DNA of 64,000 nucleotides from a virus (lineage: Duplodnaviria > Heunggongvirae > Uroviricota > Caudoviricetes): IMG/VR virus record IMGVR_UViG_2562617085_000008. The stretch is one strand, 5' to 3'. Positions 46,901 through 49,900 of the stretch are shown here, piece by piece. Within the stretch, counting starts at the first letter, position 1. Each line of letters opens with the position of its first letter. Position numbers: made by a program.

Positions 46901-49900
46901 AGCATCCATCGACTGCGTGTCCTGATTATGTTCAGTTGTATCCGGTTCCACTGCTTCAGTCGTTGCCTGTTCATCTGCCATTGCGCCAGATGGCTGCGGT
47001 TTTTCTTCATCATCCTGTTTTCCTTCTTTTGTTACACGCTGCGGCATTGGAGCAGAGGAGCGACCGCAGGCAATATCCACGATTTCTGGATCAGGGTTGG
47101 CATGGTCGGTTTCGGTCAGTACTTTGTTCAGATATTCGGTAACACGGTGGGGAGTAGCCTCGATACCAATTGGTGCTTCTTTCACGGACGCAACCACTAT
47201 CGCGCGGGAATAATCCAGGTGACCAGGCATGGCGATGAATTTGTCACGAAAAACAGAAAAGGGCGGCTTATTCTCTGAAACGATTTCTTCAATGCGTTTG
47301 GCGTGTGCCGGATGTGGATTGTAAATATCGATGTCCATTGAACGGGCCAGAACGCCAGCGGCAACGTCACGTTCTACTGACGCATCATCGTGGACAAAAC
47401 CTTCACCGCGATCGGTAAGAATTCCTCCGCCAGCATTAGCGCCGGATGGCGTGCGGCTGATGCGTAAAACACGATTTCCTTTCATCCACTCTTTTGTCAG
47501 CAGACCTCGATCGGTATAGTCAGCGTCCAGGTATGCTTCGAAAAAAGCAGTCATTAACCCCAGACTGGAATTAACGGGATTAGGGAAAACTTTGTCTGTG
47601 TCGCGTACCAGTTTGTGAAGGTCGCGAATCTCCAGCGGGTCGAGCAGCTTTGTGTTGTGGGAAATAGCCAGGGCAGTAACAGCAGGCAGTTCTTCAGCTC
47701 GTGCGATATGTAATGCCTGAAGTTCTTCCCGTGAAACGTGCGTTACCGGTTTTTCGCTGCCATGTTGCGCAAGCCAGCGAATGGGCAGTTCCTGACCGGA
47801 AATCGGCAGGAGCATATTATCCTCAATCTCAGCCATGTCTTCGCCATTGACGTTGGTATTGTCAGAGCTGGCTGGTTTGTCCTGAACTGAGGGGGAAGGC
47901 GCTATAAATATCATTGTGATGCCATCTTCCCCGCCTTTTTCATAGCGGTTGCAGAATTCAGTATCGAACACACCTTCAGGCGGCAGGTCATTAACAATGG
48001 GCAAATTCACGCGAACAGGTTTTTTGAAATCCTCTTCGTCAAATCCAGCATCGTCCATTGCGACAACACCCCGTGATATTGCAACCGATAATTTTTTTGC
48101 TGTGCGCCAGTAAAAACCGCCTTTAATCCCAAGGCGTTTTCTGACTTTGTCATTTTTGGCTTCGTAATACAGTGCAATTTCTTCTTTATCAGTGCTCATT
48201 GATAAACCTCATAACTATTTTAAGGTTGTACGAATCCCTGCCATTGCTGGCATGCTTAATCAACGGGTATGGCGTTAATACGGCTGGCGGGTTATCCAGC
48301 CGGTATTTCGTTATTCAGGTACAGCGATACTTTGTTTAACGGGAGACATTCACCGGAAATTTTTTGCTCGTCTCTTGCCTGATGGCAGGATTCTTTACTG
48401 GCATAAATTCCGGTAATCACATTCTGTGGCTCACCTGTTATAAGAAAAACCGTCATCATCAGTGCAAACGCTGAACTCACTGCTGCCCTCCGAAAATGCC
48501 AAGTTCAAGAAGGGCAATTCTGGAGAGTATGGAATTATCATTGAGAAGATAAGGCTCATATTTTCTCATCCTGATGGCGTCTTCAGTAAACTCCCGGTTA
48601 CTGAGCAGAATACCAATATTAAAACACCCTTCAGACGTATTAACGTTTGGTAGTGACGTTTCCATTATCGCGTCCTCAACAATGAATTTTGTGATGTGGT
48701 GCCTGGTGCCTCCAGGTGACGTTAACCAGTTAACAATTAACGCCGGAATACAGAATCACCCATAACGCTGTTTTTAGCTTTAACTGTTCCGCGTGCGCTC
48801 AGCCGCATTCACCACATCACAAAATTCACTTTAAAAAGGGCGGCAGAGCAGTCACGGAGTAAAACTGATACCGCCAAACGTCACCAGAAAATTGATAACA
48901 GAAGGCGTTGCAGCGGGGTTGTCACTTAAGCGTATGGTCAACCTGACAACCCGGTGTCCTCAACGGGGAAGAAATAACCCCGCCATACTTACCGCCGCAC
49001 CATTTCGCGGGTTGCCACAACCGGAAGCGCACGGTCGACGAAAATTTAACGACAGGCTATCTATGAACCAGCTACCTCGCCGTGCGCTTTCGCGTTATGG
49101 TCTGACTTTTCAGGGAAATATCCTTTCAGTAAACTGTCAGTGCCGGATGCTCACCCGCGTCCGGCGCACGCACTCCACCTCACCCGTGGAGAACTACTTA
49201 ATTACCAACCTTAGCTTCGTTGGTTAGCTATTAACGCGGGTATGTAATCATTCTGGCAATGCTTAATGCCGCTGCTTTTTCCAGATTGGTGATATCCTGC
49301 TCCAGAGCGGACAGTTTTTCAGCCTGCTTAGCCCTGGCTTCATTGGCCCATTTCAGATCCTGCGCTGCATTAATTTTCTGGCGCATCCACTCATAAAGTT
49401 CATCATCGGTATAGTCTGGTGCGATGATGACGGGTTCTCGTTTCTGCATACTGATTCCTCGCGGTGCTGTTTCGCTTATCAGCCGTTAGATTTTGCCGAG
49501 CTGGAAAGCGCCTGTTTAAATTCGTTGAAGCTGAGAGCTTCTTCGCCGTCGGCAAGACCTTCGAAGTATTCTTCATAAGCCTTTTCCATGATTGTGTCGA
49601 AATCCATATCACTCACCTGAGTTTCTTTCCAGCCAGCGACGGGCACCATTTTCGGTTTTAAACGTTTTGCTTTTGGTATACGTCATCGCGGTGAACGTGC
49701 CGTCCTGGTTGGGGAACACGCCACATACCAGAGATTCGCTGTTGCCAAGATCGATAGTATCCATGCTGACCTCATTTCCCCTTAACGCCGGGTAGCGGAA
49801 CTGTTTGCTGAGAACACCGTGCGGTGTCTTGATGGGTGGTAATTTAGTTTTCTCATGAATGTTGGTCAAGTATTTTTAATGAGAAAACTCAATATTTAAT

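Follow-up and report, generated by a model that had tools for sequence, protein, structure and literature searches.

Analysis of a 64,000-nucleotide stretch of viral DNA (the window) revealed a conserved, strand-specific RNA structure on the minus strand of an E. coli O157:H7 lambdoid prophage, in the distal part of its dicBF early-left operon. A perfect inverted repeat beside two small overlapping genes forms the outer helix of this structure. In the reading that we favor, with a probability of about 70%, the dicBF leader helix closes a four-hairpin domain and is cut by RNase III between DicF and dicB. The features of the region are as follows.

48292-48480, minus strand: 62-aa ydfD-type gene, coding for a DUF1482 homologue of YdfD, the lysis protein of Qin
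48477-48665, minus strand: dicB, cell-division inhibitor, 62 aa; RefSeq dicB at the same coordinates
48673-48677, minus strand: dicB Shine-Dalgarno sequence GAGGA, lying 7 nt upstream of the ATG and 5 nt downstream of where the 19-nt arm ends
48681-48701, minus strand: outer helix, 3' strand; contains the left arm of the repeat (48683-48701)
48702-48716, minus strand: hairpin 4, CCUGG-AGGCA-CCAGG
48718-48744, minus strand: hairpin 3, 10 bp, with the GTTAAC-like repeats; compensatory changes at two pairs
48745-48790, minus strand: three-pair helix GGA/UCC closing the hairpin-2 region
48791-48806, minus strand: hairpin 1, GCGGC-UGAGC-GCACGC
48810-48830, minus strand: outer helix, 5' strand; contains the right arm of the repeat (48810-48828)
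48831-48837, minus strand: tail of the DicF Rho-independent terminator (U5 tract and AA), directly abutting the outer helix
48838-48889, minus strand: DicF sRNA (Rfam RF00039, 76.7 bits; gathering score 48)

Gene content of the dicBF operon

An earlier, sequence-only reading of this DNA had described two 62-aa open reading frames (ORFs) overlapping by 4 nt. This description was borne out: both ORFs were found on the minus strand, the GTG start of the ydfD-type gene lies over the dicB stop in the sequence GTGA, and the RefSeq O157:H7 genome, which is 100% identical, gives exactly these coordinates. The ORF at 48477-48665 matched the Pfam DicB family PF05358 (7.4e-34, 115.7 bits; cut-off 27) and NCBIfam NF049927 (102.2 bits; cut-off 100), and its product shows 58% protein identity to K-12 DicB. 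The ORF at 48292-48480, with a GTG start and the N-terminus MSSAFALMMTVFLITG, matched Pfam PF07358 at 1.8e-14, is named "DUF1482 family protein" in RefSeq, and shows 47% protein identity to K-12 YdfD, whose lysis function is described in PMC8835842. The pair thus consists of dicB and a ydfD homologue with DicF immediately upstream, an identity that the earlier reading had missed.

Further upstream, the immunity pair DicA (NF007257, 238 bits) and DicC (NF007282, 167 bits) was found, together with a DUF1391 match, and RefSeq calls ydfB and ydfC. The locus therefore contains all the members expected of a dicBF operon: DicB, DicF upstream of it, DicA/DicC with ydfA-ydfB-ydfC, and an overlapping ydfD-type gene. 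The same gene calls are present in the identical O157:H7 genome, and the K-12 Qin prophage is in synteny. No recognisable N gene was found between the repressor and ydfA in this prophage. Transcription would proceed leftward on the minus strand from a DicA-repressed promoter through ydfA-ydfB-ydfC, DicF with its intrinsic terminator, a structured leader of about 155 nt, dicB, and the ydfD-type lysis gene, which may be translationally coupled to dicB. The dicBF operon has been under study since the late 1980s. It is already known, with annotated genes, and both RNase III processing after DicF and the site of this processing are in the literature.

A conserved RNA structure on the minus strand

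The inverted repeat is perfect and encloses 108 nt, in agreement with the sequence-only reading, but its true length is 19 nt (48683-48701 / 48810-48828) instead of 18. No further occurrence of the 19-nt arm was found in the window, even with 3 mismatches; 0.02 matches are expected by chance, and two matches were obtained in none of 100 shuffles. In the minus-strand RNA, the repeat forms an outer helix of 21 bp, consisting of 19 Watson-Crick pairs, a G·U pair, and an A-U pair. The tandem GTTAAC-like motifs reported between the arms are present at three sites (48721-48726, 48729-48734, and 48736-48741) and represent the two strands of a single RNA hairpin, hairpin 3. The four-hairpin domain and its closing helix are flanked by the terminator of DicF on one side and the ribosome-binding site of dicB on the other. 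The repeat itself does not resemble a Rho-independent terminator; its 3' strand is followed by UUGUUGAGG, and a consensus scan gave no terminator-like site there. The true terminator nearby is the DicF hairpin, upstream of the repeat, and the 21-bp helix would form only in transcripts reading through this terminator. A consensus scan of the minus strand from 48665 to 48890 revealed no promoter for the domain, and promoter-like sites across the region occurred at chance count.

Folding of the repeat region, which had been proposed as a check, revealed a stable minus-strand structure (minimum free energy [MFE], -63.7 kcal/mol; z = -5.6). The RNAalifold consensus recovered the outer helix, three hairpins, and the three-pair junction helix. 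Among 45 distinct homologues, 99.1% of the pair cells were paired overall and 99.0% in the outer helix, with double-sided changes at six pairs; these counts derive from a model-based alignment, and a MAFFT-only version shifts one class of 3' arms by one column. Of 500 shuffles, 0 reached four of the five measures, among them the covariation score and the percentage of paired cells, and 5 reached the fifth; slid controls had 33 to 42% of their cells paired. The hairpin-2 region is the only variable part of the domain and differs in sequence and length among homologues, and the GGA/UCC helix that closes it carries an A-U to C-G compensatory change in 4 sequences. Hairpin 4 is nearly invariant among the leaders (one U·G change). 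In the outer helix, 71 cells are G·U pairs, including GAUGUGGUG/CACUGCAUC of K-12; in DNA, or in RNA of the plus strand, they would turn into C·A mismatches. The covariance model of the leader scored 204 bits on the minus strand versus 36 on the plus strand. These results demonstrate that the helix and the hairpins are conserved at the RNA level and strand specifically. Of the three possibilities raised by the sequence-only reading, those of a regulatory element and a small structured RNA thus proved right. A plus-strand RNA was rejected, given its weaker fold, its lower score, and the conversion of G·U pairs into mismatches; plus-strand ORFs, e.g., 48574-48765 and 48462-48653, were rejected along with it.

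The leader was found at 8,697 places in 4,346 of 5,426 complete E. coli genomes, with up to 8 copies per genome. The earlier statement that the repeat is not a lambda feature consequently holds for lambda itself and fails for Qin/Rac-type lambdoid prophages, in which the element is standard. In 39 of 40 sampled RefSeq records, the leader was unannotated; this widespread element thus falls into an annotation gap, just under the Rfam threshold for STnc100 (see below). A scan for the core gave 166 occurrences. Every copy with an intact 5' arm (89 unique segments) has an sRNA terminator before it and the start of a gene after it, and the junction between terminator and helix is constant across 41 upstream sequence classes. 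The remaining copies comprise three that are 5' truncated, one short-stem variant after a tRNA cluster, and five with variant arms. In the direction of transcription, the end of the right arm is located 18 nt upstream of the dicB ATG in 14 of 15 dicB loci, the 15th being too short at its 5' end. These loci are from Escherichia, Shigella, Salmonella, and Citrobacter, and the spacing is kept even with a different upstream sRNA. A profile search of genome contigs with the DicB alignment gave 7 loci, all from Escherichia/Shigella except one assembly labelled Veillonella parvula; the Salmonella and Citrobacter dicB copies came from a separate search for encoding contigs.

Several of these properties could also be expected of a miniature inverted-repeat transposable element or of a palindrome acting at the level of DNA, e.g., a cruciform or a site bound by a protein. 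Perfect 19-bp terminal inverted repeats bound a unit of 146 bp, this unit is present in many copies per genome, and, together with the terminator, it also precedes kilR (after the sRNA KilS) and other genes. However, the flanks of the repeat, caacaa and ctttaa, contain no target-site duplication. The search for the unit elsewhere, which had been suggested as a check, returned many copies, and those with an intact 5' arm all lie between an sRNA terminator and a gene start. No intact copies were seen at unrelated chromosomal sites with a duplicated target and empty sister sites, and the arm is confined to this one place in the window. The G·U wobbles and compensatory pairs of the arms are valid only in the minus-strand RNA, and neither palindromes in DNA nor ends bound by a transposase would be expected to vary in this way. 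The interior is homologous to an RNA family. A mobile or palindromic DNA element is therefore most improbable, and the suggestion of a miniature mobile element is rejected: there is no target-site duplication and, among the copies with an intact 5' arm, no dispersal in unrelated contexts.

Probable processing and possible control of expression between DicF and dicB

On the transcribed strand, the outer helix provides uninterrupted double-stranded RNA of about two turns (20 bp or more), the form expected of an RNase III substrate. [quoted passage not shown] By arithmetic (72 - 53 = 19 nt), the 3' end of the 72-nt species corresponds to about position 48819 of the window and to 1649453 of MG1655, where the 5' strand of the helix spans 1649442-1649462. 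The cut would thus lie at the helix centre, near 48819, with its partner near 48690. Table S1 of Gordon et al. (2017) lists an rnc-dependent site at 1649470, assigned to "dicF-dicB" and flagged as known, with 0/0 wild-type reads versus 26 in the rnc mutant. This site falls inside the K-12 element, at a coarse resolution (a minimum spacing of 400 bp between sites was required). As a point against a cut in the helix, the only role that the 2023 study of the operon gives to RNase III is the formation of the 5' end of a 190-nt DicF, upstream, and long ydfABC-dicF-dicB transcripts were not detected in K-12 in that study.

Cleavage at these positions would separate the 72-nt DicF from a dicB-ydfD mRNA with a 5' untranslated region of about 25 nt, and it would free the dicB Shine-Dalgarno sequence from pairing with the terminator tail. 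The helix would then give a structural rationale for the published 72-nt DicF, and the same device is present before kilR, behind KilS. RNase III would need no more than a plain hairpin, so that processing by itself does not account for how little hairpins 1, 3, and 4 vary.

Alternatively, the leader may control dicB translation in cis, independently of RNase III. According to this alternative, the helix base and the terminator tail occlude the Shine-Dalgarno sequence and the DicF seed pairs with dicB codons 2 to 4, so that DicB synthesis would have to await refolding, or DicF would repress it in cis or in trans. In the predicted MFE fold of a 241-nt read-through RNA, GAGG of the Shine-Dalgarno sequence is paired with CCUU from the terminator tail, where the DicF terminator ends, and GACGUUU of DicF with AAACGUC in dicB codons 2 to 4. 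A 16-nt repeat (48646-48661 / 48876-48891) is 81% complementary, and helix and ATG keep a constant distance from each other. However, the fold is a single-sequence MFE prediction. The terminator tail, the Shine-Dalgarno sequence, and the DicB N-terminus are each conserved for other reasons, and their conservation is therefore not independent evidence. Moreover, in cassettes where the sRNA and the downstream gene are different, the helix is retained and these contacts are not. We regard RNase III-independent control as possible, though clearly less probable than processing.

The domain could also act on transcription, as a put-like antitermination RNA or a Rho-related signal in cis for dicB, ydfD, the exonuclease gene, xis, and int. 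The operon is long, the element directly follows a strong terminator, there is no recognisable N gene, and relatives of the domain occur in the late operon. In addition, Rho/NusG silences kilR, a gene preceded by the same leader. However, the element is retained in the Citrobacter versions, which carry a gene for an N-type antiterminator upstream, and Rho loads poorly on highly structured RNA. Such a role, which is purely inferential, is very unlikely, and RNase III processing is preferred.

Kinship with STnc100 and comparison with known systems

Searching with the Rfam model STnc100 (RF02076) revealed an end-to-end match of the leader (model positions 1 to 206) with 39.8 bits, which does not reach the gathering threshold of 47; seven homologous loci scored 30.8 to 38.4 bits. 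Conversely, a model built from leaders only detected the two true STnc100 copies of the window with 50.5 and 48.5 bits (E about 1e-10).

2882-3090: true STnc100 copy, tRNAs upstream, AgvB next to it
60851-61043: true STnc100 copy, tRNAs upstream, AgvB next to it

The leader and STnc100 share the loops and junctions GGUGAAU, UGAGCG, and AGGCA, the last with a compensatory difference in its stem (hairpin 4 versus CCGGG/CCCGG in STnc100). The leader has no 3' terminator hairpin of its own, and the 3' part of the STnc100 model aligns to the dicB ribosome-binding site and coding start. These results indicate that the leader domain is homologous to STnc100, by a match that is below threshold but reciprocal. 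This family link to the STnc100 prophage sRNAs is the one modestly new point of the analysis. It connects early-operon leaders with the abundant late-region STnc100/EcOnc/PasD sRNAs of EHEC and EPEC and suggests a shared function of the conserved loops.

The kinship raises the possibility that the helix is mainly an excision device, with RNase III cuts on both strands releasing the domain of about 128 nt (about 48818-48691), which would be a stable functional RNA like STnc100, EcOnc06, EcOnc27, and PasD. The products of a cassette would then be two small RNAs and an mRNA, which is compatible with the preferred explanation but moves the function to the domain. The end-to-end match here and at seven further loci, the reciprocal detection, and the shared loops and junctions are consistent with this idea, as is the much stronger conservation of the domain relative to the coding sequence beside it, with a DNA identity of 94% to its K-12 counterpart compared with 47 to 58% protein identity for ydfD and dicB. 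According to the literature, STnc100-type RNAs are expressed and at least partly Hfq bound in EHEC. However, neither the dicF-dicB nor the KilS-kilR spacer is reported to give rise to an RNA of this size, and in its main text the EDL933 ncRNA survey has no candidate whose coordinates fall at the DicF copies. The score below the gathering threshold also argues against excision, as does the lack of the terminator hairpin and U tail that STnc100 has at its 3' end. A review on DicF and EcOnc sRNAs does not mention the dicF-dicB spacer. Hfq-dependent sRNAs normally require a terminator hairpin and U tail of this kind. Release of a stable RNA as the main role is thus rather unlikely.

A related and equally speculative proposal is that sRNA terminator, 21-bp helix, and four-hairpin domain form a portable three-product cassette of lambdoid early operons. 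On read-through, RNase III cuts on both strands would free an upstream Hfq sRNA (DicF, KilS, or others), an STnc100-like RNA of about 128 nt that itself acts in trans or binds a protein, and an mRNA, thereby activated, from a gene of toxic or regulatory role (dicB, kilR, or rha/ash). STnc100, EcOnc27, and PasD of the late operons would then be free-standing descendants or ancestors of the domain.

Comparison with STnc100, which overlaps EcOnc27, by position probably EcOnc06, and is related to PasD, revealed a common architecture of an outer stem enclosing hairpins, with shared junctions and loops. The leader differs by about 10 extra outer base pairs, which give a helix of RNase III size, and by the absence of the 3' terminator hairpin and U tail. 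It is located in the early-left operon, whereas STnc100 lies between tRNA/stx and esterase/lysis genes, beside AgvB/AsxR.

Among the closest known systems is the Qin dicBF operon of K-12 (ydfABC-dicF-dicB-ydfD), in which the gene order and the regulators DicA and DicC are the same and DicF is identical. The identity is about 94% from the first approximately 35 dicB codons through the leader and DicF to the end of ydfC, whereas the distal half of dicB and all of ydfD have diverged, with the protein identities given above. The Qin element is located at MG1655 1649435-1649616. Its helix has two G·U wobbles, at pairs that are fully Watson-Crick in the O157 copy. Downstream, the prophage studied here keeps intact exonuclease, xis, and int genes, whereas Qin is decayed.

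The Rac KilS-kilR region shows the same arrangement of an sRNA with a GGCGG...CCGCCCUUUUU terminator, a 21-bp helix with the four-hairpin domain, and the ribosome-binding site of a division inhibitor; like the dicB cassette, Rac kilR encodes an FtsZ-directed inhibitor of division. The Rac element (MG1655 1418409-1418227, 169.7 bits) directly follows KilS (1418405-1418502). The sRNA body and the downstream gene are different, and the 3' strand of the helix carries a bulged A and a U·G pair. The Rac rnc-dependent site of Gordon et al. (2017), 1418510, is upstream of KilS and outside the element.

Phage RNase III stems are known from the lambda N-leader and from the early mRNA of T7. Cleavage at these sites separates functional RNAs and can alter translation of the next cistron. 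The dicBF leader resembles them in having a long helix directly upstream of a ribosome-binding site in a phage early transcript. In contrast to these stems, its helix comes immediately after the terminator of an sRNA and encloses a conserved domain of several hairpins.

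Gene content and the inverted repeat

Analysis of the region revealed the two 62-codon open reading frames described in the sequence-only reading (48292-48480 and 48477-48665, with 4 nt in common). Both lie on the minus strand, so the whole region is read in that direction. ORF 48477-48665 encodes DicB (Pfam, 7.4e-34; NCBIfam, 102.2 bits at a cut-off of 100; 58% identity to K-12 DicB), and ORF 48292-48480 encodes a DUF1482 protein with 47% identity to the K-12 lysis protein YdfD. In K-12, dicB and ydfD overlap and act jointly: division is blocked by DicB, and dividing cells are lysed by YdfD (PMC8835842). 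The surrounding features are as follows.

Features around the gene pair
48838-48889, minus strand: DicF sRNA (Rfam, 76.7 bits)
48673-48677, minus strand: dicB Shine-Dalgarno sequence GAGGA (read from the sequence)
5' of dicB, same strand: ydfC, ydfB and a DUF1391 (ydfA-type) gene (profile matches and RefSeq)
Upstream, beyond the ydfA-type gene: DicA-type repressor and divergent DicC/Cro (profile matches and RefSeq)
Downstream of the gene pair: RecE/YdfE-type exonuclease, xis and int (profile matches and RefSeq)

E. coli O157:H7 strain PV15-279 has this region at 100% identity, with the same RefSeq gene calls. The gene identities, DicF and the identical O157:H7 locus identify the region as a lambdoid-prophage dicBF operon. 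The exonuclease gene immediately 3' of the ydfD homologue (45755-48199, minus strand) encodes an 814-aa YdfE-type protein with an N-terminal Exonuc_VIII (RecE-type) region and a C-terminal Rv2179c-like 3'-5' exoribonuclease domain. The same prophage carries a sok antitoxin RNA of the hok/sok type I toxin-antitoxin system (55620-55794, plus strand, 111.7 bits).

The inverted repeat, initially described as perfect and 18 bp long, is perfect but 19 nt long (48683-48701 / 48810-48828). The arms are 108 nt apart, and the GTTAAC-like motifs noted between them were found at 48721-48741. No further arm match with up to three mismatches was found in the 64-kb window (chance expectation, 0.02 matches). 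Folding of the minus strand (-63.7 kcal/mol, z = -5.6) revealed that the arms pair and are extended by G·U and A-U pairs to a 21-bp helix (48810-48830 with 48681-48701), which closes a four-hairpin domain. This helix starts two bases past the U5 tail of the DicF terminator, and the 19-nt arm ends 5 nt from the dicB Shine-Dalgarno sequence. The earlier guess of a structured RNA or regulatory element was borne out, on the opposite strand.

Conservation and strand of the RNA structure

Homologues were collected from viral contigs, searched with patterns for DicF and for the core, from Salmonella and Citrobacter assemblies and from Escherichia species. The element is more conserved than the neighbouring sequence: it is nearly unchanged in Salmonella, Citrobacter and E. 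albertii, which have another sRNA body upstream. Of the 15 dicB loci examined, 14 have 18 nt between the end of the right arm and the dicB ATG; the 5' end of the fifteenth is too short to show the helix. The second hairpin is the sole variable part, and RNAalifold recovered hairpins 1, 3 and 4 (numbered 5' to 3') together with the outer helix and a helix of three pairs that encloses the variable part. Covariation was counted in two alignments; pairing was lower with MAFFT because one class of arms was misaligned by one column.

Covariation counts (MAFFT alignment of 31 representatives; model-based alignment of 45 distinct sequences)
Pair cells paired: MAFFT, 95.5%; model-based, 99.1%
Outer helix paired: MAFFT, 91.6%; model-based, 99.0%
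Pairs changed on both sides: MAFFT, 6; model-based, 6
Shuffles reaching the observed covariation score: MAFFT, 0/500; model-based, 0/500
Slid controls, cells paired: MAFFT, 36-42%; model-based, 33-42%

Compensatory changes in the outer helix comprised U-A to C-G and A-U to G-C in the class of homologous loci L149 and L171 and C-G to U-A in the window copy. The outer helix contains 71 G·U cells, and the K-12 helix pairs GAUGUGGUG with CACUGCAUC by wobbles. In DNA or plus-strand RNA, the same positions would hold C·A mismatches, which indicates that the minus-strand RNA is the paired molecule. The covariance model scored the locus at 204 bits on the minus strand versus 36 bits on the plus strand. 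The wobbles settle the strand of the conserved structure as minus.

The suggestion of a mobile element proved wrong. No target duplication was found in the flanks of the repeat, no copy in an unrelated context was present among the recovered elements with an intact 5' arm, and the arms vary as RNA. A transposon end is ruled out by the G·U wobbles as well as the lack of target duplication, and a DNA palindrome by the wobbles and the minus-strand-only pairing.

Probable RNase III processing and predicted DicF-dicB pairing

K-12 DicF has two 3' ends: the 53-nt form stops at the intrinsic terminator, and the 72-nt form is the RNase III product of the full-length dicBF transcript (reviewed in PMC5069750 and PMC9438474). 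The annotated DicF end plus 19 nt corresponds to window position 48819 and MG1655 position 1649453. The 5' strand of the helix spans 1649442-1649462 in MG1655, so the reported 72-nt end falls mid-helix, also in the case that a few U residues are counted in the 53-nt form. A helix of 21 bp is the classical RNase III substrate, and RNase III cuts are usually staggered by 2 nt. Comparison of wild-type and rnc mutant transcriptomes lists site 1649470, 'dicF-dicB', flagged as known (PMC5371410, Table S1), with 0 and 0 reads in the wild type and 26 in the mutant, a low count at coarse resolution. This position is 8 nt inside the element. RNase III would be expected to cut read-through transcripts near 48819 and, with a 2-nt stagger, near 48690, parting DicF-72 from a dicB-ydfD mRNA whose leader is ~25 nt long. 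When the 241-nt RNA is folded uncut, CCUU in the tail of the terminator is paired with GAGG of the Shine-Dalgarno sequence, which suggests that cleavage may also open the dicB ribosome-binding site. In a 2023 study of the operon, the sole role reported for RNase III was further upstream, in making the 5' end of DicF of 190 nt, and no long read-through RNA was seen in uninduced K-12.

It seems unlikely that the excised domain has a function of its own; in favour of one, hairpins 1, 3 and 4 are near-invariant, which an RNase III site alone does not explain.

The ydfC-dicF spacer (48890-49230, minus strand) is likewise strongly structured (-126 kcal/mol, z = -2.9) and contains a second inverted repeat (49022-49034 / 49080-49092). 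The published RNase III-made 5' end of 190-nt DicF would map to ~49027, inside one arm. A plus-strand 'hypothetical protein' annotated there by RefSeq (49063-49227) is probably spurious.

The single-stranded 5' seed of DicF (UUUUCUGGUGACGUUU) could base-pair with codons 2-7 of dicB (AAACGUCACUACCAAA). The two stretches (48876-48891 and 48646-48661, minus strand) are 81% complementary over 16 nt with a 9-nt perfect core, DicF GACGUUU pairs with AAACGUC of dicB in the read-through fold, and the seed pairing is kept in K-12 with wobbles. By this complementarity, DicF could regulate dicB in cis or in trans.

The cassette at other loci and its relation to STnc100

The element is tied neither to DicF nor to dicB. 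Among copies whose 5' arm is intact, 41 distinct upstream sequence classes were recovered, all ending in a GGCGG...CCGCCCUUUUU terminator hairpin that directly abuts AAAG and the helix. Genes 3' of the element encode, among others, DicB, KilR, a Rha/Ash regulator and two small uncharacterised proteins. Complete E. coli genomes carry it at 8697 places (4346 of 5426 genomes). Of 40 RefSeq records sampled, 39 carry no annotation under it, and in the remaining one the match overlaps dicB. The MG1655 Rac copy (1418409-1418227, 169.7 bits) is located exactly between the annotated sRNA KilS and kilR, and the helix is kept, its 3' strand having one bulged A and a U·G pair. At this locus (L188, 1418227-1418502), the KilS end is the terminator preceding the element, which then extends to the start codon of kilR; position 1418510, 8 nt 5' of KilS, is listed as an rnc-dependent site.

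The dicB copies at homologous loci L148, L154 and L158 keep the 3' half alone, from hairpin 3 onward, with unrelated sequence upstream. The helix is impossible in these natural deletion or recombination variants, which are usable as controls. Two records of phages whose attributed hosts are not enterobacterial, PP818812 (Actinobacillus phage vB_Apl-pPE4) and MT713136 (Aeromonas phage AP1), contain nucleotide matches of 87-93% to the element and part of dicB; true spread seems less likely than contamination or the presence of E. coli prophage DNA in the assemblies.

The alignment of the element to the Rfam STnc100 model is end to end and scores 39.8 bits, short of the gathering score (47); seven homologous loci score 30.8-38.4 bits. 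The window also contains two true STnc100 copies.

STnc100 and AgvB features
2882-3090 and 60851-61043, plus strand: true STnc100 copies (175 and 144 bits)
3092-3151 and 61045-61106, minus strand: AgvB sRNA, antisense, abutting the STnc100 copies

Both copies sit just after tRNA genes and adjoin antisense AgvB; the two tRNA-STnc100-AgvB regions indicate that the window spans parts of two prophages. In EHEC prophages, such late-region pairs have been described as an 'sRNA dyad', and the AgvB-paired copies probably correspond to EcOnc06. STnc100-type RNAs, which overlap EcOnc27 and are related to PasD, are expressed late-region sRNAs, at least partly Hfq-bound. No mention of the dicF-dicB spacer was found in the literature examined on these RNAs. 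A short-stem variant at locus L168 (4283-4407, minus strand), with an 8-bp outer helix (UUGCGGUG/CACCGCAA), lies 3' of a tRNA cluster and 5' of an ORF for a hydrophobic product of 77 aa; both its form and its context place it between the leader of the early operon and STnc100 of the late region.

What was noticed thus comes down to genes that are annotated and a processing site that the literature already describes, and the operon has been known for decades. The STnc100 family link and the cassette shared before dicB and kilR add modestly to this and merit a note to annotators rather than a discovery claim.

A covariance model built solely from leader elements detected both true STnc100 copies (50.5 and 48.5 bits, E ~1e-10). 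Leader and STnc100 have in common the GGUGAAU junction, the UGAGCG loop and the AGGCA loop, whose stem differs in a compensatory manner (CCUGG/CCAGG in the leader versus CCGGG/CCCGG in STnc100). In contrast to STnc100, the leader has about ten more outer base pairs, lacks its own terminator and is located in an early operon; because of these differences, it is classed as a relative rather than a member.
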